IMG/VR virus record: IMGVR_UViG_3300026549_000024
Length of the DNA stretch: 32,852 nucleotides
From: a virus
Strand: one strand, 5' to 3'
Shown here: piece after piece, positions 2,190 through 10,952 of the stretch
Layout of the letters: each line of letters starts with the position of its first letter
Numbering within the stretch: the first letter of the stretch is position 1
Program-made: the position numbers and the translations under genes
The notes under the pieces: model-generated
The model's input: the letters and a program-made list of their open reading frames with translations, nothing else
Databases searched by the model: none
What the model was told of the DNA's origin: nothing

Positions 2190-2239
2190 AAAATTTTACT
2201 CAGAAATCCTTTAGGGTACTTTTCAAAGGAAGTTCACAG

Positions 2240-2340
2240 TTTCGTGCCTTGAAGTCGCGACGGAAGGATCGAACACATGGATCCGGACGCCTTCGGGGTG
2301 GTTAGCCGCCTATTATGACGGCGACATTTATATCAAATAA
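2240..2340 (+). pseudogene. Displaced 3' end of the endolysin gene (C-terminal part of the SH3-like wall-binding domain)
   Basis: Reading from 2242 gives SCLEVATEGSNTWIRTPSGWLAAYYDGDIYIK-stop (stop 2338-2340). This continues in frame from ...LQKGTRV at 32722 once the IS and one TTT copy are removed. Confidence 0.75.
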
Positions 2341-2442
2341 AGAAGAAAGGGGGATCCGGATCCGGTCAAGGGCGGGTCAAGTAACACATTCACAAATACC
2401 TTCTTTATGGTCAAGGAATAGGGATATATCACACGGAACAGG

Positions 2443-2471
2443 GGACGTCGAAAGAAAATCGGCGTCCTTTT
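2443..2471 (+). terminator. Putative intrinsic terminator downstream of the original lysin stop
   Basis: ggacgtcg (2443-2450) pairs with cggcgtcc (2460-2467) with one G-U pair, followed by tttt. Confidence 0.45.
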
Positions 2472-2538
2472 GTTAATGGAATAGAAAGAATATTGTGTTA
2501 TATTAGTAAAGCGAAAACGAATGAAAGGAATTAAAACC

Positions 2539-2745
2539 ATGTCAGATCAATATAATTTCAGCAGGCCGGAAATCGAAAAGATGATTGAACAGCAGGATAT
2601 TACAAAGGATCCGCCGACTGAAGAACCGTTCAGGCAGTATTATTTTATTAAGAAAATGCGGGACTACGTAAAAAGAATGTCCGCTGAATTAGGCCGCCCG
2701 CTTACCGCGTGTACGAAAACATTCGGTTGTCAGATGATTTTCTAA
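2539..2745 (+). CDS. miaB: Phage-borne 5' fragment resembling the N-terminus of the tRNA methylthiotransferase MiaB, ending just after the TFGCQM motif
   Basis: MSDQYNFSRPEIEKMIEQQ...FRQYYFIKKMRDYVKRMSAELGRPLTACTKTFGCQM-IF-stop. From recall, the RQYYFI...GRPLT.C..TFGCQMN pattern is the N-terminal region and first Cys motif of clostridial-type MiaB. The ORF stops 2 codons after CQM. Its RBS (aaggaattaaaaccATG) matches the phage early-gene initiation motif. Confidence 0.6.
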   Translation: MSDQYNFSRPEIEKMIEQQDITKDPPTEEPFRQYYFIKKMRDYVKRMSAELGRPLTACTKTFGCQMIF

Positions 2746-2748
2746 CAC
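2709..2748. other. Candidate attP core for the serine integrase (imperfect 40-bp dyad)
   Basis: gtgtacgaaaacattcggtt | gtcagatgattttctaacac. 12 of 20 positions are symmetric, including outer GTGT/ACAC and GAAAA/TTTTC. The centre lies at 2728/2729 in the Gly-Cys codons of TFGCQM. It sits 245 bp from the integrase 3' end. Confidence 0.5.
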
Positions 2749-2955
2749 GGGACGTGGAAAACGCCGAAAATAAAGGATTCCTGAAAACAGAAAACACGAT
2801 TCCGGCCGAACTTGTGGACAATATCGGGCGAAGTTGTGGACAGATAGAGAACAAAGAACGCCGTTCGGGTTTGCATTGCAGCAGATCCGGCGGCGTTTTG
2901 ATATGTCAAAAATATCTTTCAAAAACGTGAAGCATTTCAAAAGATATTCGCGGGA

Positions 2956-2997
2956 TATGTACATTCAAATGTACATAAAATGAATACTTTTATTCAT
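2956..2997 (-). terminator. Two AT-rich hairpins at and after the integrase stop codon (likely int terminator)
   Basis: atgaata/tattcat (2980-2986/2991-2997) is followed on the minus strand by a T-run. Next comes the 9-bp-arm palindrome tatgtacat-tcaa-atgtacata (2956-2977). Confidence 0.4.
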
Positions 2998-4708
2998 TCC
3001 AGACGAAGCGGTTCCGAAGGCCGTTCTTGAAGACGATTTCAGACGGACGGGCTTTCTTTACGGTCACATGGTCAAGAACAAGGTTCACAAAATCCTTCAG
3101 GACTTTCGGATCGACGGAAGCGGCCAACGTCTGATAATCAATTTCTTCGCCTGATTGGATCTTGCAGGAAACAAGAAAGGAAGAAGCGGAGTTCACAAAG
3201 GACAGTTCAGACACATGTTCAAAGGAATCTTCTTCGGCGTCGGCGATCTTGTTCCGAACTCGCGTCAGCTTTTCCGTCAGTTCGGAACGGGTCGAGAGGT
3301 ATTCGTTTTCAGGGATCGCCGTATCATCAAACAGGAAAGCATTCTTCAGGCGTTCAAGCGCCCGTGAATACTTTTGTTCTTCTTTTCTCAATTCCGTCAG
3401 ATCCGGCCGCGGTTCCTCCTTGATCGGCGCGGGGATATAGGTCGAAGATCCGGAAACGGCAGCGGGCGAACGGATCACCTGAAGGATAACGTTCAGATCT
3501 TCCGGGTTTATGCAGCGGACGCCCTGAAAGGCGTTTCCGCGAAGAAGGACAGATTCAAGTTCTGCTGCCGACGCGATTTTCTTCCGGTTCTTCGTTGCCT
3601 GAATGATATTCGAGATATATTGGAAGACAAAAGGCCCGACGATCACTTCGGAAGCATACGGGGCAGAACAGGCGCGATATGTCCGGCGCGAAGTACAGAC
3701 ATAAAGCGACGGCCGGAAGCCGTTCGCCCGCTGCTTATCCGTCGAAGCGGCTTGCATTCCGGCGCCGCAATCAGCGCAGCGAAGCAGGCCCGCGAAGACG
3801 TGGATCCGCTTATCCTGCCGTGATCGGCCGGACATTCGTTTCACTTCGTTGTTATGGTCAAGGGTAGTGTTCACGCGATCCCACAATTCGGGATCTACAA
3901 GCGGCGGGAATACGCCGGGAACATAAATAACCTGATCTTCCGGTTTTTTCCTTCCGCGGGCTGAATTTCGGTAATTATACCGATAATCGCCTTTATTCAT
4001 CGGGTTCCGAAGATATACGGCAAGGCTTGACGTATTCCAACGGCCGCCGCGCTTCGTCGCGATATTATGGTCATAACAGTAATCGCGAAGTTTTGAAGTT
4101 GAATGAAGCTGATCATATTGTTCGTAAAGTGCCCGGGCAGCGTCAGCTTCTTCAGGATCGTGTTCAGGGAATTCCGTTTTGGGGTTCCATTTCCAACCGA
4201 ACGGCATTCGGGCGCCGTTCCATTTCTTTTCAAGCGCCCGTCCGATCATAACGTCCGTCACACGTTCAGACGTCAATTTCCTTTCAAGTTCAGCGAAAAC
4301 AAGAATGATCTTCAGGACGGCTTCGCCGATTGCGGAAGACGTGTCGAATTGTTCATTTAAAGAAACGAACGTCACATAATACTTTTTGAATTCGTCATAC
4401 ATTAAAGAGAAATCGACAAGGTTCCGCGATATCCGGTCAATCTTATAAACGACGACGTGGGACACTTGCCCGGCGCGAATCTTCTTTATCATTCGTTGAT
4501 ATCCGGGGCGGTCGGTATTCTTCCCGGATTTTCCGGCGTCTTCAAAGATTTCATAATTTGTTTTATGAAGGATATGTTCACAATATGCCTTCAGTTCCTT
4601 CTTCTGGAAAGGAAGCGAATCTTTATCAACCTGATATCCGGTCGAAACGCGGACATATAGGGCGACAATCTTTTCTTCTTTCATGGCTTGATTCCTTCCG
4701 ACGGTCAT
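2990..4708 (-). CDS. Large serine recombinase (phage integrase)
   Basis: 572 aa. N-terminal resolvase domain with ALYVRVSTGYQ (catalytic Ser) and VYKIDRISRN. Recombinase domain (GGRWNTSSLAVYLRNPMNKG). Zn-ribbon (LLRCADCGAGM...YVCTSR). C-terminal coiled-coil-like region. Confidence 0.9.
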   Translation of the reverse strand: MTVGRNQAMKEEKIVALYVRVSTGYQVDKDSLPFQKKELKAYCEHILHKTNYEIFEDAGKSGKNTDRPGYQRMIKKIRAGQVSHVVVYKIDRISRNLVDFSLMYDEFKKYYVTFVSLNEQFDTSSAIGEAVLKIILVFAELERKLTSERVTDVMIGRALEKKWNGARMPFGWKWNPKTEFPEHDPEEADAARALYEQYDQLHSTSKLRDYCYDHNIATKRGGRWNTSSLAVYLRNPMNKGDYRYNYRNSARGRKKPEDQVIYVPGVFPPLVDPELWDRVNTTLDHNNEVKRMSGRSRQDKRIHVFAGLLRCADCGAGMQAASTDKQRANGFRPSLYVCTSRRTYRACSAPYASEVIVGPFVFQYISNIIQATKNRKKIASAAELESVLLRGNAFQGVRCINPEDLNVILQVIRSPAAVSGSSTYIPAPIKEEPRPDLTELRKEEQKYSRALERLKNAFLFDDTAIPENEYLSTRSELTEKLTRVRNKIADAEEDSFEHVSELSFVNSASSFLVSCKIQSGEEIDYQTLAASVDPKVLKDFVNLVLDHVTVKKARPSEIVFKNGLRNRFVWNE

Positions 4709-5112
4709 TCTACTTTAGAATTAAAAAGGTATGAGGAAATAACAACGTCGTCAAAACGGTCAAGGTCAGAAATATCGCAGATATTCGCCCTCCAGAACCG
4801 GACGCCTTTATTCTTTTGCGCCGCAAATCGCGGATCGTCGGGTGAAATATCAAGATTTAAGGCAGCAACAGAAAGCCAACGCGCCCGCGGCGTATATTTG
4901 AAACGAAGGAAATCATTCGGGCCGCAGCACAAAGAAAGATAGTTGTCGGAACGCCTTTCAAGAGAAACAGACGCGTCGGGATATTTGGATTTAATAGCAG
5001 AAATAAAATGTTCAGAAATCAGGAGATCATCTTCAGAAGCGTTCAGATCCTTGTCAAATTGCGATTTAACAGTCAAAACGCCGTTTTCGTATTTGATAAT
5101 AATTCCGTTCAT
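4705..5112 (-). CDS. Hypothetical protein in the lysogeny operon (between repressor and integrase)
   Basis: 135-aa ORF. Its stop overlaps the integrase start (ATGA overlap) and its start lies 3 nt after the repressor stop. No recognisable motif. Confidence 0.6.
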   Translation of the reverse strand: MNGIIIKYENGVLTVKSQFDKDLNASEDDLLISEHFISAIKSKYPDASVSLERRSDNYLSLCCGPNDFLRFKYTPRARWLSVAALNLDISPDDPRFAAQKNKGVRFWRANICDISDLDRFDDVVISSYLFNSKVE

Positions 5113-5115
5113 GTT

Positions 5116-5490
5116 TCATTTCCTTTCATTCATTTCTTCATTTATTCCAACAGAACGAAGGACAACGGATTGTTCGGCGTCCGAAAGCTGCCGGAAGTGG
5201 ATTATTAAAGAATATTCCGTGTCAGAAAGAACAAGCGGCGGCAGCTTCGCGTCAGTATGTCCGATCAGCTGATCTTCAGAGACTTCAAGCGCGGCGGCAA
5301 TGCGTTTTAGCATGGAAAGATTGATCCGGCGGGTTCCGGTTTCATATCCTGAATACGTACTTTGCGAAATCCCGATTTTTTTCGCCGCTTCAGCTTGTGA
5401 AAGATTCAACGCGTTCCGCGCTTCTGCTATATTTCGGCCTAGTGATTCATATTCGGGGGATCGTGCTGCCGCCGTTCGCGTTCTCGCCAT
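5116..5490 (-). CDS. XRE-family HTH repressor (CI-like)
   Basis: 124 aa. HTH_3 signature LSQAEAAKKIGISQSTYSGYETGTRRINLSMLKRIAAAL. Divergent from a Cro-like gene. RBS aggaagg. Confidence 0.85.
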   Translation of the reverse strand: MARTRTAAARSPEYESLGRNIAEARNALNLSQAEAAKKIGISQSTYSGYETGTRRINLSMLKRIAAALEVSEDQLIGHTDAKLPPLVLSDTEYSLIIHFRQLSDAEQSVVLRSVGINEEMNERK

Positions 5491-5528
5491 ATTCTAAACG
5501 CCTTCCTTTCGTCATTCGTCACGCCTTC

Positions 5529-5557
5529 ATTATAAACGCAAAAATGCGTTATAACAA
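5529..5557 (-). promoter_or_regulatory. Leftward promoter for the repressor operon
   Basis: On the minus strand: TTGTTA (5557-5552), 17-nt spacer, TATAAT (5534-5529). The spacer is occupied by the palindromic operator. Confidence 0.5.
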
Positions 5558-5660
5558 GAGAATAAACGCAAACAGAAATATAATAACAGCAAAAAACATA
5601 TTGACATAAACGCGGAACGCAGTTATTTTATAAGAAGTGAATACCGCGAAACGCGTTTAT
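5531..5660. promoter_or_regulatory. Operator set: repeated ATAAACGC motif in the immunity intergenic region
   Basis: ATAAACGC occurs at 5532-5539, 5562-5569 and 5606-5613 (+) and at 5653-5660 (-). An imperfect inverted partner tgcgttataa lies at 5545-5554. A further copy sits at 5930-5937 downstream of the Cro-like gene. Confidence 0.5.
5601..5629 (+). promoter_or_regulatory. Rightward early promoter
   Basis: TTGACA (5601-5606), 17-nt spacer, TATTTT (5624-5629), about 60 nt upstream of the Cro-like start. An ATAAACGC motif overlaps positions 5606-5613. Confidence 0.55.
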
Positions 5661-5688
5661 TCTGTTTTAGAAAGGAGATCAAACCGAC

Positions 5689-5916
5689 ATGGCAAAAATG
5701 CTTATTAACATTTATCCGGGGCTTCGGGCAGAAATGGCAAGGTTCGGCGACAATGCCGAAACGCTTTCGAAGGTTCTGAATATTAGCGTGGACAGCGTTC
5801 GAAGAAGGCTTCGCGGGGAATACGAATTCGACATTAACGAAATCAGGATCCTTATGAACAGATACGGGAAGACGTTTGAAGAACTTTTCAGCACCGCCGA
5901 AAGGGTCACAGCTTAA
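5689..5916 (+). CDS. Cro-like / small HTH early regulator
   Basis: 75 aa, first gene of the rightward operon. HTH-like segment AETLSKVLNISVDSVRRRLRGE. Confidence 0.7.
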   Translation: MAKMLINIYPGLRAEMARFGDNAETLSKVLNISVDSVRRRLRGEYEFDINEIRILMNRYGKTFEELFSTAERVTA

Positions 5917-5931
5917 TTTTTTATTCAAAAT

Positions 5932-5951
5932 AAACGCGAATGGCGTTTTTT
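5932..5951 (+). terminator. Weak short-stem terminator-like hairpin after the Cro-like gene
   Basis: aaacgc-gaatg-gcgttt followed by a T-run. Overlaps a fifth ATAAACGC motif. Confidence 0.3.
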
Positions 5952-5970
5952 GAAAGAAAGGAATCAAATC

Positions 5971-6402
5971 ATGAACAAAACATTATTCAGCAGTAATTCG
6001 GAAGAATGGGCGACGCCGGGGGACTTCTTCGAAGAACTGAACAGGGAATTCAAGTTCGATCTTGATCCTTGCGCGACGGCAGAGAACCACAAAACGCCGA
6101 AGTTCTTCACGAAAGAACAGAACGGGCTTCTTCAGGATTGGGGGGGGCAGCGGGTTTTTTGTAATCCGCCCTACGGCCGGAAAATCGGGGACTGGATCGC
6201 GAAGGCATACGAAGAAGGACACAAAGACGGAACGATCGTCGTTCTTCTTATTCCGGCAAGGACAGACACGAAGTATTTTCACGATTACATCCTGAACCGG
6301 TCAGAAATCAGATTCGTAAAAGGCCGCCTGAAGTTCGGCGGGGTCGATCAGTCGGCGCCGTTCCCTTCAATGGTCGTTATCTTCAGGGGGCCGGGAATGT
6401 AA
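5971..6402 (+). CDS. DNA N6-adenine methyltransferase, phage Dam family
   Basis: Start moved to the ATG at 5971 (RBS aaaggaatcaaatcATG). EWATPGDFF, DPCA and the catalytic NPPY motif (VFCNPPYGR) are typical of the phage Dam-type N6A-MTase family. Confidence 0.8.
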   Translation: MNKTLFSSNSEEWATPGDFFEELNREFKFDLDPCATAENHKTPKFFTKEQNGLLQDWGGQRVFCNPPYGRKIGDWIAKAYEEGHKDGTIVVLLIPARTDTKYFHDYILNRSEIRFVKGRLKFGGVDQSAPFPSMVVIFRGPGM

Positions 6403-6441
6403 AAGCAGCAGCCGGAGCGTGAGAAAGGAAGGAATCAAACC

Positions 6442-6651
6442 ATGATGAACATTGACGAAGAAGAAAAGGACATCCGGGTTTGCCCGGTATGCGGAAAAGA
6501 AGTTGAACGGTCAAATATGTTATTCACACACGACTGTCACGGGATCCCGTTCCGGCTTGTTTGTTCCCGTTGTTGGGAAAAGCTTATGTCGAAAGGTTAC
6601 GACGGCGAATATTACACGGAAGCAGACGAACAGATCGAACCGGATTATTAA
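6442..6651 (+). CDS. Small Cys-rich (zinc-ribbon-like) protein
   Basis: 69 aa. CPVCG...CHG...CSRCW. Conserved initiation motif ggaatcaaaccATG. Confidence 0.65.
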   Translation: MMNIDEEEKDIRVCPVCGKEVERSNMLFTHDCHGIPFRLVCSRCWEKLMSKGYDGEYYTEADEQIEPDY

Positions 6652-6666
6652 CGAAAGGCGGGGGCA

Positions 6667-6867
6667 ATGGGAATTTATAACAACAAGCTGATGTTTCAGA
6701 TCAGTCAGATCATTAAACGCTGCAATGAAGACTTGAAGAAAGACACGATTCAGACGCGCGACAGCTATTACCAGATAAAGGCGTTCCATTATGACAGCAT
6801 TGAAAAGCTTGTCAGGAGGGCAGCGGAAGAAGAAGAACAGGAGAGGCAGCAGGAAGGGCAGGAATGA
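6667..6867 (+). CDS. Hypothetical early protein
   Basis: 66-aa ORF in the same-strand early array. RBS motif gaaaggcgggggcaATG. Confidence 0.55.
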   Translation: MGIYNNKLMFQISQIIKRCNEDLKKDTIQTRDSYYQIKAFHYDSIEKLVRRAAEEEEQERQQEGQE

Positions 6868-7148
6868 AGAAGAATCAGAAATTCGATATCCCGGAAGATT
6901 CACAGGCGTATGTCGTCGCGAATCTTCCGGAAGGGAAGCAGGACGCGATCGTCGTCTTCAAAGGGAACACGCGGAAGCTGATAACGCTTTACGCGTTCGC
7001 CGGGGCAAAGATCGCGGAACGTCTGAAGGCGGACGGGTTCACAGATATTCAGATCCGGGATGCGCTGATCGGGACGTTTACGACGGCGATCGACACGGCC
7101 CTGAAGGGGCAGGAAGGGAAGAAGGGATCAAACCATGAAGAAAGCTGA
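6864..7148 (+). CDS. Hypothetical early protein
   Basis: 94-aa ORF with a 4-nt overlap with the upstream gene (ATGA). Confidence 0.6.
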   Translation: MKKNQKFDIPEDSQAYVVANLPEGKQDAIVVFKGNTRKLITLYAFAGAKIAERLKADGFTDIQIRDALIGTFTTAIDTALKGQEGKKGSNHEES

Positions 7149-7395
7149 TATCAGGCTTCGGGATTTCCTGACATTGATCGGCCCGAATACGGTTGTCAGG
7201 ATAATCGACGACACGATTCCGGCGAAGTCGAAGAAGGAAGAAGAACAGGCCGAAGAACAGACCATCAGAAAGGGAATCGCAGTCAGGATCTTCAAAGAAC
7301 TTGAAGCAGACGACGGAACCATGATCAAGCACATTTCGCCGAACGTCGAATTTGACACTTTAGGCCGGTACGTTGTGCGAATCTATGTTTATTAG
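7135..7395 (+). CDS. Hypothetical early protein
   Basis: 86-aa ORF preceded by gggatcaaaccATG. Confidence 0.6.
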   Translation: MKKADIRLRDFLTLIGPNTVVRIIDDTIPAKSKKEEEQAEEQTIRKGIAVRIFKELEADDGTMIKHISPNVEFDTLGRYVVRIYVY

Positions 7396-7420
7396 GACAA
7401 AGAAAAGAAAGGCGGGGAAT

Positions 7421-7717
7421 GTGAAACTTTTTGAATTATTGCGCGTTATTCCTTCATCGGCGCGAATGCGGATTTTAGACAAGCGCGGCGAAGAAGTGTT
7501 CCGCGGATATCGCGGGAATCTGGACGAAAGGCAGATCAAGCTTCTTCCATTTGGTTATACAGACGCGGAAGTCAGAAGATTCGTCTTCAGTACGGACATA
7601 TACGCGAAGGATTACGAAAAGCGCGGTTTAATGCCGCCGATCGATCCGGAAGCGGTTCCAGATTACAGCTTTTCAGATCTGAATTTGATTATCTACTACG
7701 AAATAACAATCAGTTAG
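7421..7717 (+). CDS. Hypothetical early protein
   Basis: Start placed at GTG 7421 because of the upstream motif aaaggcggggaatGTG and the upstream gene's stop at 7393-7395. Confidence 0.55.
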   Translation: MKLFELLRVIPSSARMRILDKRGEEVFRGYRGNLDERQIKLLPFGYTDAEVRRFVFSTDIYAKDYEKRGLMPPIDPEAVPDYSFSDLNLIIYYEITIS

Positions 7718-7736
7718 CAGGGGCGGAAAGGACGGA

Positions 7737-8108
7737 ATGAAGACCGAACCGACATTCGCGACAAAGCGGGATCTTTTCAGGCTTATGAATTGGGAACTTG
7801 AAGATCTGGAAGAACAGGAATCTTCAGAAGATGAATTCAGAAGCGACGACGCGGCAGCGGGCGCGTTATTAGACGCCGTTCGATGCATCAGGAATAAGAC
7901 AAACGATATCGAAGGCGACGCCGTTGAATATTACGTCAAGCAGATATCAGGGACGGATCCGGAATATCTTCACGCGGTTCTGACAGACAATTACAGACAG
8001 GCATCAGAACTTGCGGCATTGTCGGTTCGATTCATGGCATTAACGCGCCGGGCGATCGTCCGTATATACGGAGACATTGACGCGCCCGGAACAGAACGGG
8101 GGCAGTAA
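7737..8108 (+). CDS. Hypothetical early protein
   Basis: 123-aa ORF with RBS ggaaaggacggaATG. Confidence 0.6.
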   Translation: MKTEPTFATKRDLFRLMNWELEDLEEQESSEDEFRSDDAAAGALLDAVRCIRNKTNDIEGDAVEYYVKQISGTDPEYLHAVLTDNYRQASELAALSVRFMALTRRAIVRIYGDIDAPGTERGQ

Positions 8109-8461
8109 TGGAAGAATTAAAAGAAAACCTGAAAGCGGAACTTCTGAAAATAGGAATCCGCAACGAATCAGATCTTCAGGAAGCGATCCGGAATCTGCCG
8201 CCGCTGAATCTTTCCGTAATGACAAATAAAGCGGTAACGGAAGGGAATATAAATGGACGCGAACGGAAACAAGATCTTTGCGGTCGATTTCGACGGGACG
8301 CTTTCGTTCGGGAAGTGGCCGGAAACAGGGAAACCGAACCGGGATCTTTTCGATTATCTGATTCAGCAGAATACGGAAGGGGCGCGGATAATCCTTTTCA
8401 CGTGCCGGACACGGGATCGCCTGACGGAAGCAGTCGAATATTGCAGGAAATACGGCCTTGA
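8108..8461 (+). CDS. Hypothetical protein; only the first ~48 codons look protein-like, the rest overlaps the next gene
   Basis: ATG overlaps the previous stop (TAATG). The N-terminal part MEELKENLKAELLKIGIRNESDLQEAIRNL looks helical. After 8253 the frame is Arg/Gly-rich and overlaps the HAD-like gene by 209 nt. Confidence 0.35.
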   Translation: MEELKENLKAELLKIGIRNESDLQEAIRNLPPLNLSVMTNKAVTEGNINGRERKQDLCGRFRRDAFVREVAGNRETEPGSFRLSDSAEYGRGADNPFHVPDTGSPDGSSRILQEIRP

Positions 8462-8633
8462 ATTCGACGCCGTGAACGAAAACCTTCCGGAACTTATTGA
8501 ATTATACGGGGAAGACACGAGAAAGATCGAAGCAGACGTTTATATCGACGATAAAGCGGTCAATCCGGTCGCGGGAAATTATTCAGCCGCGCCGAATCAA
8601 TATTTCATAGAAAGGAAAGGAATCAAACCATGA
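8253..8633 (+). CDS. HAD-superfamily-like phosphatase/nucleotidase
   Basis: 126 aa. N-terminal DxDGT motif (FAVDFDGTL), then FTCR and YIDDKA segments consistent with HAD motifs II-IV. Confidence 0.65.
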   Translation: MDANGNKIFAVDFDGTLSFGKWPETGKPNRDLFDYLIQQNTEGARIILFTCRTRDRLTEAVEYCRKYGLEFDAVNENLPELIELYGEDTRKIEADVYIDDKAVNPVAGNYSAAPNQYFIERKGIKP

Positions 8634-8959
8634 TGAAATTTTTAAGCAGCAGAAGGGAACATCAGAAACAGCTTCACGAAACATTCAAGCAGATCGAGCA
8701 GATCGGAACCGCCGCAACGGTTCAGGACGCCGATTTATTGACGGGCTACATCATCGGGCAGATCGAATTGAAGGTCAAAACGGGGCGCCTGACGCATAAG
8801 CAGGGAGACGCACTGGAAGACATGACGTTCGCGATTAACGAAGAAGTTCGGCAGCAGATCGAAGACGACGAAAAGGACAGCGAAGAAGCAGCGGATCCGG
8901 AATCAGATCTTCCGGAAGTGGAATATTTCCCGCAATATGCCGGCGCATTCAGGGAATAA
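8630..8959 (+). CDS. Hypothetical early protein (acidic C-terminus)
   Basis: 109-aa ORF preceded by ggaatcaaaccATG. Confidence 0.6.
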   Translation: MMKFLSSRREHQKQLHETFKQIEQIGTAATVQDADLLTGYIIGQIELKVKTGRLTHKQGDALEDMTFAINEEVRQQIEDDEKDSEEAADPESDLPEVEYFPQYAGAFRE

Positions 8960-9040
8960 AAAGACGCCGCGCAAGGCGGGGAGCCAAAACGCGGCGTCAT
9001 GGAATCAAACCTTTTTCAGTATAGCAGAAAGGTGGGGAAT

Positions 9041-9301
9041 ATGCAAAAGGAAGACGAAACGGCGGCGCTGATAATTGCCGAAACGGAAGGCTTGATCGCT
9101 GCCATCCTTCACTTGAAGAATGAGAACGAAGAACTTCGGGAACGGATAAAGCGGCAGGATCGGGGATATGAACATATCTTCAACGCGGTCGTTCAGTGGG
9201 AAAGAGTTTATGACGCCCTGCCGTCGTATGTGAAGAACGCGTTCAAGCTGACGGAAAGGATTGTTGAACAGGAATGCAAAGCAGAAGAAAAGGAAAGCTG
9301 A
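9041..9301 (+). CDS. Hypothetical early protein
   Basis: Start moved to ATG 9041 (motif aaaggtggggaatATG). Helical, charged sequence. Confidence 0.55.
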   Translation: MQKEDETAALIIAETEGLIAAILHLKNENEELRERIKRQDRGYEHIFNAVVQWERVYDALPSYVKNAFKLTERIVEQECKAEEKES

Positions 9302-9459
9302 AGACGGCAGCGGCAGCGGCCGCGATCATTGCGTTCTTCGCGTTGTGGATATACGGGGCGATCCTTGACAGGCGTTCCGCGGATCACAGCGAATGGAATT
9401 CACTGACGGAAGAAGAAAGGAATGAAGCACTTTATCAGCGCTATATTCGGGGATTTTAG
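9274..9459 (+). CDS. Small membrane protein (one predicted TM helix)
   Basis: 61 aa. Hydrophobic stretch AAAAAAIIAFFALWIYGAIL. Overlaps the upstream gene end. Confidence 0.4.
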   Translation: MQSRRKGKLKTAAAAAAIIAFFALWIYGAILDRRSADHSEWNSLTEEERNEALYQRYIRGF

Positions 9460-9470
9460 AACAGACGTTC

Positions 9471-9507
9471 GGGCGGCGTTCCTTCTTAATATATAGGAAG
9501 CCGCCCT
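9471..9507 (+). other. GC-stem / AT-loop hairpin upstream of the Rep gene (candidate nick-site origin or terminator)
   Basis: gggcggc(g)ttcct - tcttaatatat - aggaagccgccc. 12 bp of stem with one bulge and an 11-nt AT-rich loop. No T-tract follows. Confidence 0.4.
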
Positions 9508-9576
9508 GATCCGGCCTTGTAATGGATATTAACGTTTGTTCCTTACCCGAAAGATAGGTTTTCAAAGGCGGGGAAT

Positions 9577-10449
9577 ATGAACAGATTATTCGATGATTAT
9601 GATTTTGAAGAAGCATATCAGAAGCAGATCGAAAATCTGGAACAGTGGGAGATCGAAAGGATCCTGAAGAAGAAAGCTGGGGTTCTGTATCAGACGAAGA
9701 CAACGAAGGCCGGGGAACAGTTAGAGGTCGATATATATCCGGCATTCAGGACGAAGGCGGAAGCGCCACGAATAGAAAGAAGGAACAGCAGCAGACCGGC
9801 ACAAAAGAACCTGAACGACAGAAGGGCGAAGCGATATCTGAACAATCTGATCAATGCGAACTTCGGGAAGGGCGATCTTTGGTGTACGTTCACGTATGAC
9901 GACGAACACGTTCCAGAATCAGAGGAAGCAGCGGGGAAGTGTTTCAGGAACTTCATTCGGCGGATCAACCGACGCCGGGCGAAGAAAGGGAAAGAAAACG
10001 TTAGGTATATATGCGTGACGGAATACGTCAGCGTGGAGGGGGAACCGGTTCGCGCACATCATCACGTGATCATGGAAGGGGACGAAGACCGGGACGGGCT
10101 TGAAGAATTATGGAAGTACGGAAGTAGAAATCAGACGCGCCGGATCAGCCCGGATCCCGATACGAATATAACGGGAATTGCACACTATATCACGAAGCAG
10201 GCGAAGGATCCGAAACGTCGAAAAGGGTCGAAGCGTTGGACGTGTTCGAAGAACCTGAAGAAGCCGACGATCACGAAATCATATTCAAAGTTCGGGAAGC
10301 GGACGGCGGCACGTATGGCAACGGATCGGGCGTATCTGAAAGAACGAATCGTGAAAGCTTATCCGGGATATAGGTATATAGACGCGGAAGCACGGACAAA
10401 TGATATCAACGGCGGGTTTTATATTTACGCCCGCATGGTCAGGGATTAG
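9577..10449 (+). CDS. HUH-superfamily rolling-circle replication initiator (Rep)
   Basis: 290 aa. Motif-1-like WCTFTYDD, HUH motif RAHHHVIMEG, Tyr motif GIAHYITKQAK. Confidence 0.7.
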   Translation: MNRLFDDYDFEEAYQKQIENLEQWEIERILKKKAGVLYQTKTTKAGEQLEVDIYPAFRTKAEAPRIERRNSSRPAQKNLNDRRAKRYLNNLINANFGKGDLWCTFTYDDEHVPESEEAAGKCFRNFIRRINRRRAKKGKENVRYICVTEYVSVEGEPVRAHHHVIMEGDEDRDGLEELWKYGSRNQTRRISPDPDTNITGIAHYITKQAKDPKRRKGSKRWTCSKNLKKPTITKSYSKFGKRTAARMATDRAYLKERIVKAYPGYRYIDAEARTNDINGGFYIYARMVRD

Positions 10450-10457
10450 GGGGATGA

Positions 10458-10952
10458 ATGAAAGTGTCGAACATGAAAGCAGGAGAAGCGGCGGAACAGA
10501 TCAAGCTTTTCCGTTGGGCCGCAATGAATGAAGAATTCGTTCCAGAACTTCGCCTTCTGTATCACGTCCCGAATGAAGGGAAGCGAAGCGCGGCAGCAGG
10601 CGCACGAATGAAGGCGGAAGGATTGAAGGCGGGCGTTCCGGATATATGCCTTCCGGTTTCCCGGCATGGGTACGGCGCTTTATACATCGAACTGAAGTAC
10701 GGTCAGAACAGGCCGACGAAGGCACAAAAGGAAATGATCGCGGCGCTTCAGACAGCGGGAAACAAAGCGGTCATTGCATACGGGGCAGAACAGGCCCGCG
10801 AAATCATACGGCATTATTTGGAAAGGGCGGAAGGGTTCGATCTTGTGAATTGCGAAGAAGCGCCGAAGATCTTCGACAGGTGCGAAGGATTTCCGGATCA
10901 TCCGGCCGCGCCATGCCGTGAATGCAAATACTATCAACGCACAGCGGAATAA
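10458..10952 (+). CDS. VRR-NUC domain nuclease
   Basis: 164 aa. QIKLFRWA...LLYHVPNEG...GVPDICLP...ALYIELK...Q matches the PD-(D/E)xK VRR-NUC pattern. Confidence 0.8.
   Translation: MKVSNMKAGEAAEQIKLFRWAAMNEEFVPELRLLYHVPNEGKRSAAAGARMKAEGLKAGVPDICLPVSRHGYGALYIELKYGQNRPTKAQKEMIAALQTAGNKAVIAYGAEQAREIIRHYLERAEGFDLVNCEEAPKIFDRCEGFPDHPAAPCRECKYYQRTAE

Follow-up and report, generated by a model that had tools for sequence, protein, structure and literature searches.

A temperate phage of gut Lachnospiraceae with a probable serine-integrase attachment site in its own 5' segment of miaB

Introduction

Phages that integrate at tRNA 3' ends, and e14 and phage 21 in icd, carry a copy of the segment that they displace, and the target stays functional. 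In these cases, a tyrosine integrase acts at the 3' end of the gene, within a long identical core. Intragenic prophages of serine integrases include SPbeta in spsM (PMC5499854) and A118 / phi10403S in comK (PMC3556126), in which the gene is interrupted. Burkholderia phage JC1 inserts itself into rimO at its 5' end with a serine recombinase (Viruses 2022;14:938, PMC9144972), and its ATG, 15 bp upstream of attP (18-bp overlap), keeps rimO in frame (PMC9144972). The dusA-associated integrases are found in islands and prophages (NAR 2015;43:4547, PMC4482086).

Here we describe a phage of gut Lachnospiraceae found on one stretch of 32,852 nucleotides, hereafter called the window (IMG/VR virus record IMGVR_UViG_3300026549_000024). 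Very likely, its attP lies within a phage-borne 5' cassette (hereafter, miaB') of miaB, the gene for the tRNA ms2i6A37 methylthiotransferase, and a TG crossover in a Cys codon of host miaB creates a hybrid MiaB open reading frame (ORF). Like JC1, this phage has a serine recombinase, an attP next to the recombinase gene, and an in-frame start that it supplies itself, and the target gene stays open. The target in JC1 is rimO rather than miaB, and about 10 initial codons are all that JC1 replaces, whereas the miaB phage brings 63 codons along with a hairpin and a candidate promoter; its crossover is pinned to 2 bp in a cluster-ligand Cys codon, a habit that appears common to the whole integrase clade. 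The dusA elements likewise insert into the 5' end of a tRNA-modification gene and replace that end with element-borne sequence, keeping a structural beta strand and with putative promoters after integration, but they use tyrosine integrases in Proteobacteria, whereas the miaB phage uses a large serine integrase and needs no extended identical core. SPbeta and A118 / phi10403S share with it a large serine integrase, an attB in coding sequence, short att sites, and a central dinucleotide; they inactivate the target until excision (a regulatory switch), whereas the miaB phage leaves the gene open via a replacement module. In contrast to the tRNA and icd cases, it replaces a 5' end, with expression signals, and its segment is only 35% identical to the one replaced. 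No description of a phage that enters miaB by means of a serine integrase was found in the literature searched. The miaB phage is thus a new, unusually complete, and well-documented case of gene-restoring integration, and not a new kind.

Results

Genome organization of the phage

Bases 32726-32852 of the window repeat bases 1-127, and the window assembles as a circle. The endolysin gene runs from 31447 to 32725, resumes in frame at 2240, and ends at ~2340, being split by an insertion sequence (IS):

1-2239 (repeated at 32726-32852), IS inside the endolysin gene, with a DDE_Tnp_1 transposase (166-1911) and an 82-aa ORF (1886-2134)

The IS is bounded by perfect 17-bp inverted repeats (CTGTGAACTTCCTTTGA) with a TTT target duplication, and the phage is ~30.5 kb once it is subtracted. 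In other phage copies the endolysin is an intact protein of 452 aa, and the IS-split window copy may be lysis-defective. Logan contig L170 (run SRR7971122) is 100% identical to the window over 2209-10916, including the right end of the IS. At least ten phage-form contigs of about 30-32 kb, from unrelated gut metagenomes, have the uninterrupted 452-aa lysin followed by an identical 74-aa miaB' ORF and a 572-aa integrase. Given the circular assembly and an endolysin that reads in frame across the IS, the order lysin, 2340-2990, integrase represents the excised, attP-bearing form. The phage is temperate and siphovirus-like, and belongs to gut Lachnospiraceae.

A look-up of the window's exact integrase returned just one further attP contig, from the same sample, and in the deposited-phage collection a related fragment was present in only five records, all unannotated faecal "Bacteriophage sp.".

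The window also encodes a diversity-generating retroelement at 27255-30285:

27255-28370, mtd-like target gene
28237-28361, variable repeat
28403-28837, bAvd
28918-29042, template repeat
29230-30285, reverse transcriptase

The variable and template repeats differ at 11 positions, every one at a template adenine.

The integrase and its relatives

The gene next to the putative attachment site is on the opposite strand to miaB', with its stop codon at 2990-2992:

2990-4708, minus strand, large serine integrase of 572 aa, predicted from its Pfam domains and YVRVST motif

Pfam detected a Resolvase domain (PF00239, 5.4e-36, residues 15-160), a Recombinase domain (PF07508, 5.5e-18), and a Zn_ribbon_recom domain (PF13408, 6.2e-9), and the catalytic serine as read from the translation is Ser22 in YVRVST; on these domains the protein is assigned to the large serine integrases.

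Among relatives of the integrase at 50-67% identity, most of those with enough flanking DNA adjoin a truncated miaB N-terminus, about 100-250 bp beyond the int stop codon. Those with a lysin on the far side (L103, L107, and L113) are the phage form with their own copy of miaB', and those with a host gene on the far side (proA, proB, degV, lacI-type, or pepT) are attL sites in which the miaB stub is host-derived.

One genome, Lachnospiraceae bacterium UBA1683 (L080, 10001-14427), has, after a truncated miaB N-terminus, genes for a C5 DNA methylase, an Eco47II-type restriction enzyme, and a serine integrase with 56% identity to that of the window; the gene beyond them, for an M20-family peptidase, is on the minus strand and appears to belong to the host. 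The arrangement may represent a small element, not a phage, at the same attachment site.

Just past the int stop codon of the window lies a perfect palindrome (ATGTACATTCAAATGTACAT, 2956-2977), which is conserved in relatives L094 and L175 and may be a bidirectional terminator or an int regulatory site.

A phage-borne 5' segment of miaB

Between the endolysin and the integrase is a short ORF on the plus strand:

2539-2745, plus strand, miaB', phage-borne replacement 5' segment of miaB, assigned by homology and by its in-frame fusion in attR contig L144

The ORF comprises 68 codons plus a stop and reads ...RQYYFIKKMRDYVKRMSAELGRPLTACTKTFGCQMIF before the stop, ending TFGCQMIF; a further in-frame ATG is present at 2521. 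It encodes an N-terminal extension, strand beta1, and the first cluster-ligand Cys (TFGCQM), followed by IF and the stop. The sequence-only reading had taken this ORF for a MiaB N-terminus that terminates shortly past the motif. The stop indeed falls two codons after QM, and tblastn matched the product, at 40-64% identity and with E-values as low as 3e-21, to about 70 full-length miaB genes of Lachnospiraceae, at their N-termini (DNA scan of one genome per species); a Pfam search with the 68-aa product alone recognized no domain. The shared pattern is ...EPxRQYYF...LGRPLT.C..TFGCQMNARDSEKL. A word-indexed protein search with the phage or host MiaB N-terminus as the query retrieved short fragments only and no full-length MiaB, and the full-length proteins were reached with a query from the C-terminal part and with DNA scans. 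The window ORF stops after the first Cys, without UPF0004, radical-SAM, or TRAM domains, and miaB' is thus a gene fragment, not a MiaB.

All 35 short homologues of miaB' are conserved up to TFGCQM(N) and diverge beyond. Their tails after QM vary freely and include IF, NVVSEI, and NTEHEIEKAA, each followed by a stop, as well as others.

Several candidate expression signals lie upstream of the ORF:

2437-2474, plus strand, terminator-like hairpin followed by UUUUGUU, 3' of the endolysin stop codon (RNA fold)
2476-2504, plus strand, candidate miaB' promoter, with an extended -10 element TGtTATATT (2496-2504) and a weak -35-like ATGGAA (2476-2481), read by hand
2523-2530, plus strand, Shine-Dalgarno sequence GAAAGGAA, 8 nt before the ATG at 2539

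The hairpin has a folding energy of -18.6 kcal/mol (z = -4.1), better than that of any of 200 shuffled sequences. It is kept in relative L175, as is TGnTATATT despite the diverged flanks, and it likely insulates miaB' from late transcription. A consensus promoter and terminator scan of 2240-3000 called no plus-strand promoter and no terminator. From the conserved hairpin and the extended -10 element, we infer that the hybrid miaB would be transcribed from a phage promoter.

The attP site and the position of the crossover

The 3' end of miaB' overlaps the attachment site:

2704-2753, no strand, attP, ~25 bp to either side of the crossover, with P arm ...GCGTGTACG... and P' arm ...AACACGGGACG...
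2728-2729, no strand, crossover dinucleotide TG, bases 1 and 2 of the TGT codon for Cys64 (frame from the ATG at 2539)
Host miaB, attB, 50-bp stretch, acgtaccatgtcaccaatttcggcTGccagatgaacgcgagggacgctga

A dyad at 2709-2748 with 12 of 20 symmetric positions, 245 bp from int, had led the sequence-only reading to place attP here, with the crossover at about 2728/2729. The count was reproduced (14/25 when the dyad is extended), and the distance from the int stop codon measures 242 bp to the edge and 261 bp to the centre of the dyad. Dyads of at least 12/20 have 54 centres in the window (0.16%), four of them in the 650-bp spacer between lysin and int (2728, 2816, 2929, and 2966), and the dyad alone is not statistically significant. 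It is accepted as real since the junctions place the crossover at its centre, i.e., on the TG at 2728-2729, and since related phages keep its outer arms, GTGT...ACAC, in their attP. The phage-borne P arms share GCGTGT(A/T)CGG and the P' arms share AACACG(A/G)GA, the latter also present in attL; host B arms are without the GTGT/ACAC motif. The window and L175 have diverged in the flanks but hardly at all in the roughly 60 bp around the crossover.

Junctions within host miaB

Exact-pattern scans for the attR and attL of the window phage found none in viral contigs or JGI metagenomes (first scan), and the attP pattern was likewise not found in the viral contig collection. Junctions that split miaB at about 2728/2729 were found in metagenome contigs, both as attL and as attR. 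The attR of the window phage is on contig L144, which matches the window at 99.7-100% identity from holin via lysin and miaB' to 2737, and continues beyond as host miaB (AACTTCAACGACTCCGAGAAG). The gene at this junction encodes an in-frame hybrid MiaB of 506 aa with UPF0004, Radical_SAM, and TRAM domains, with mutS and mutL downstream. The lysogen keeps an intact hybrid miaB reading frame, as had been proposed for the phage-supplied N-terminal segment. The hybrid protein aligns to the solved MiaB 7MJV at 1.8e-85; the alignment to 7MJV/7MJZ starts at TKTFGCQMN, and the N-terminal extension of about 58 residues is without a counterpart in these structures. The hybrid MiaB is presumably enzymatically active. 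In-frame substitute segments were also observed for related phages in L015 and L001, the latter frameshifted in the assembly.

Contigs L094, L138, and L140, from a second host, carry attL in the order pepT, host MiaB N-terminus (MQNLKLIADEKELARQEEFLQRDREYTQELKAQLGRTPTYHVTNFGCQM), TG, phage sequence, and int, and the phage sequence after TG encodes IF and a stop (...ACAC(G/A)GGACG...). The phage in L094 and L140 is a relative with 88% identity; L138 bears the ACACGGG variant of the window and ends 23 bp past the crossover (2752). These attL junctions and the attR of the window phage come from different hosts and different samples, with no contig carrying both. The corresponding attB is present in L163 and L164, where an intact pepT-miaB-mutS-mutL region encodes a MiaB of 488 aa (P0038/P0158, found on contigs up to 607 kb) and reads ...aatttcggc TG ccagatgaacgcg. 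The attL of L140 equals the attB of L163 over 1,735 nt through the TG, and the next base is phage T, not host C. On the other side of the dinucleotide, position 2727 is host C in attL and phage T in attP. The crossover corresponds to codon 64 of the phage-borne frame and to codon 47 of 488 in host MiaB P0038. The attL contigs, together with attB in L163, bear out the earlier proposal that the phage integrates within the FGCQMN-coding segment of host miaB.

True attL sites (L052, L094, and L115) look much like the window in that a truncated MiaB N-terminus adjoins int, and the window could be read as such a host-prophage junction, with miaB' as the truncated miaB of the host. However, what precedes miaB' is the endolysin of the phage and no host gene; the circular layout recurs in the ten or more contigs of about 30-32 kb; and the real attL in the known host carries a different N-terminus, with pepT before it. 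This reading is refuted by the endolysin, the circular layout, and the pepT-preceded attL, and its probability is close to nil.

The real attP might instead be another dyad of the spacer, either the perfect palindrome at 2956-2977 or those at 2816 or 2929, which score 12-13/20, the palindrome being conserved in relatives. Against this, all six junctions examined (L144, L147, L168, L094, L138, and L140) break at 2728-2729, and the DNA from 2730 to int, these dyads included, is of phage origin in the full-length attL of L094, L140, and L168. No junction was found at the palindrome, where breaks had been named as what would speak against the miaB site; the palindrome is refuted as attP of the window phage, and an alternative dyad has a vanishingly small chance of being the site. 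We thus retain attP at 2704-2753, and junctions of the integrase relatives, including the 'TFGCP' junctions of more distant ones, are all compatible with exchange at the same TG.

In a further strain of the P0038-type host (L142, 1729-1900), miaB is out of frame and shows a gap of roughly 40 codons, attB among them, that starts at FGCQMN and reaches about ADFV. The gap is either a real attachment-site deletion or an assembly artefact.

A secondary integration site

A complete copy of the window phage was found at a non-miaB site on a 52-kb contig (ERZ27252042 k141_45447) with both junctions. The contig was reached via a 75-aa neighbour protein and had been missed by a look-up with the repressor. 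The attL (L168, position 2040) reads ...gtcgcagcgg TG tcagatgatttt... and the attR (L147, position about 8126) reads ...acattcggt TG agcgatgtctac..., with only the TG in common. In silico removal of the prophage restores a continuous Gfo/Idh/MocA oxidoreductase ORF, and the phage miaB' ORF ends there as a 69-aa stub. The insertion is a natural off-target event of the integrase.

Selection on miaB' and the range of hosts

Compared with its closest relative L175 (79% amino-acid identity), miaB' has 14 synonymous changes in 40 sites and 19 non-synonymous changes in 164 sites (dN/dS 0.26), and this ratio indicates that it is under purifying selection. The phage MiaB N-terminus and the host N-terminus that it displaces are only 35% identical, and thus miaB' was not recently captured from the current host. 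Lineages with no more than 50-67% identity between their integrases keep the EPxRQYYF...GRPL...TFGCQM pattern in their phage-borne copies. The earlier proposal that miaB' is a phage-adapted replacement, rather than carried-over host DNA, is supported by these three observations; its original argument, that the ribosome-binding site matches the phage's own motif, does not hold, as GAAAGGA(A) is a generic Shine-Dalgarno sequence that precedes most phage genes and is not diagnostic.

Serine integrases require only about 50 bp of attP, and the other 150 bp or so of miaB' are unneeded for recombination. This fact, and the failure of Pfam to find a domain, would suit a passive relic, i.e., functionless host DNA from an imprecise excision, with only its final ~25 bp in use as the P arm. 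A relic is improbable, however, given the dN/dS of 0.26, the pattern conserved across divergent lineages, the low identity to the current host, and the retention of start codon, ribosome-binding site, frame, and upstream hairpin. Alternatively, the 68-aa product could also act independently in the free phage (e.g., mimicking or titrating a partner of the MiaB N-terminal extension), with gene repair as a secondary matter. The ORF is complete with its own stop codon in every phage-form contig, and its extension is the part absent from the solved MiaB structures, both in keeping with such a peptide. Nevertheless, we consider it highly improbable, given the freely varying tails after QM and a conservation whose end coincides exactly with the crossover, as selection on the fused form would predict.

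The host parts of MiaB in L144 and P0038 are only 62% identical, and the window phage and its very close relatives therefore occupy miaB of clearly different Lachnospiraceae or Clostridia. The presence of a near-identical phage in two hosts suggests lysogeny across genus-level boundaries. A related case comes from the cultured isolate 'Lachnospiraceae bacterium 50-23' (L015 8329-11500, JBCLPV010000001.1, around 55 kb), in which a full-length miaB directly follows a lysin gene (87% identical), with a P arm identical to that of the L107-type phage. The isolate is an attR lysogen of an L107-type relative, and its miaB is presumably a hybrid.

A Lachnoclostridium sp. metagenome-assembled genome (L038, 10001-12293) has a truncated miaB N-terminus ending ...TTFGCPFV before the stop, then about 640 bp with one small ORF, and after this gap a full-length miaB of 494 aa whose N-terminus is different and phage-like. 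It looks like the remnant of a decayed element whose replacement 5' end became fixed in the chromosome.

Discussion

Under the preferred reading, strand exchange takes place on the TG of the Cys codon in the TFGCQMN-coding segment of host miaB. We take this Cys to be the first ligand of the auxiliary [4Fe-4S] cluster of MiaB, from knowledge of the family and homology to the solved MiaB. Because both Cys codons begin with TG, the dinucleotide is invariant for as long as a Cys is kept at this position. On its left side, attP is the 3' end of a cassette made up of the terminator-like hairpin, the candidate extended -10 element, a ribosome-binding site, and 63 MiaB codons, and the phage supplies everything upstream of the third base of the crossover Cys codon. 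Integration joins phage miaB' to host miaB at attR, giving an in-frame hybrid upstream of mutS-mutL, and leaves the host promoter and N-terminal stub stranded at attL beside int.

Although homology is not required by serine integrases, a 63-codon replacement module has evolved in this phage lineage and been kept there. A crossover on bases that the host cannot change, combined with such a module, would explain how a housekeeping gene can offer a cost-free intragenic site, and the same design would explain near-identical prophages in distantly related gut bacteria. Short "hypothetical" ORFs beside integrases and 5'-truncated miaB stubs in Lachnospiraceae can be recognized as signatures of attachment sites, and some "native" miaB genes are phage-host hybrids. 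For an uncharacterised large serine integrase, the data provide a natural attP/attB pair, a base-precise crossover, and one off-target site, which are of direct use for recombinase toolkits, and isolate 50-23 is a ready experimental system.

More tentatively, a whole clade of gut Lachnospiraceae phages could use the unchangeable Cys TG of miaB as a universal crossover, each with a portable cassette of promoter and N-terminus; we regard this extension as possible but rather doubtful. If true, one phage could lysogenise hosts of different genera, and the transcription of an enzyme that serves translation fidelity would be under phage-supplied control. Now and then, the cassette would be fixed in the chromosome, as in L038, and phages would then drive the turnover of MiaB N-termini.
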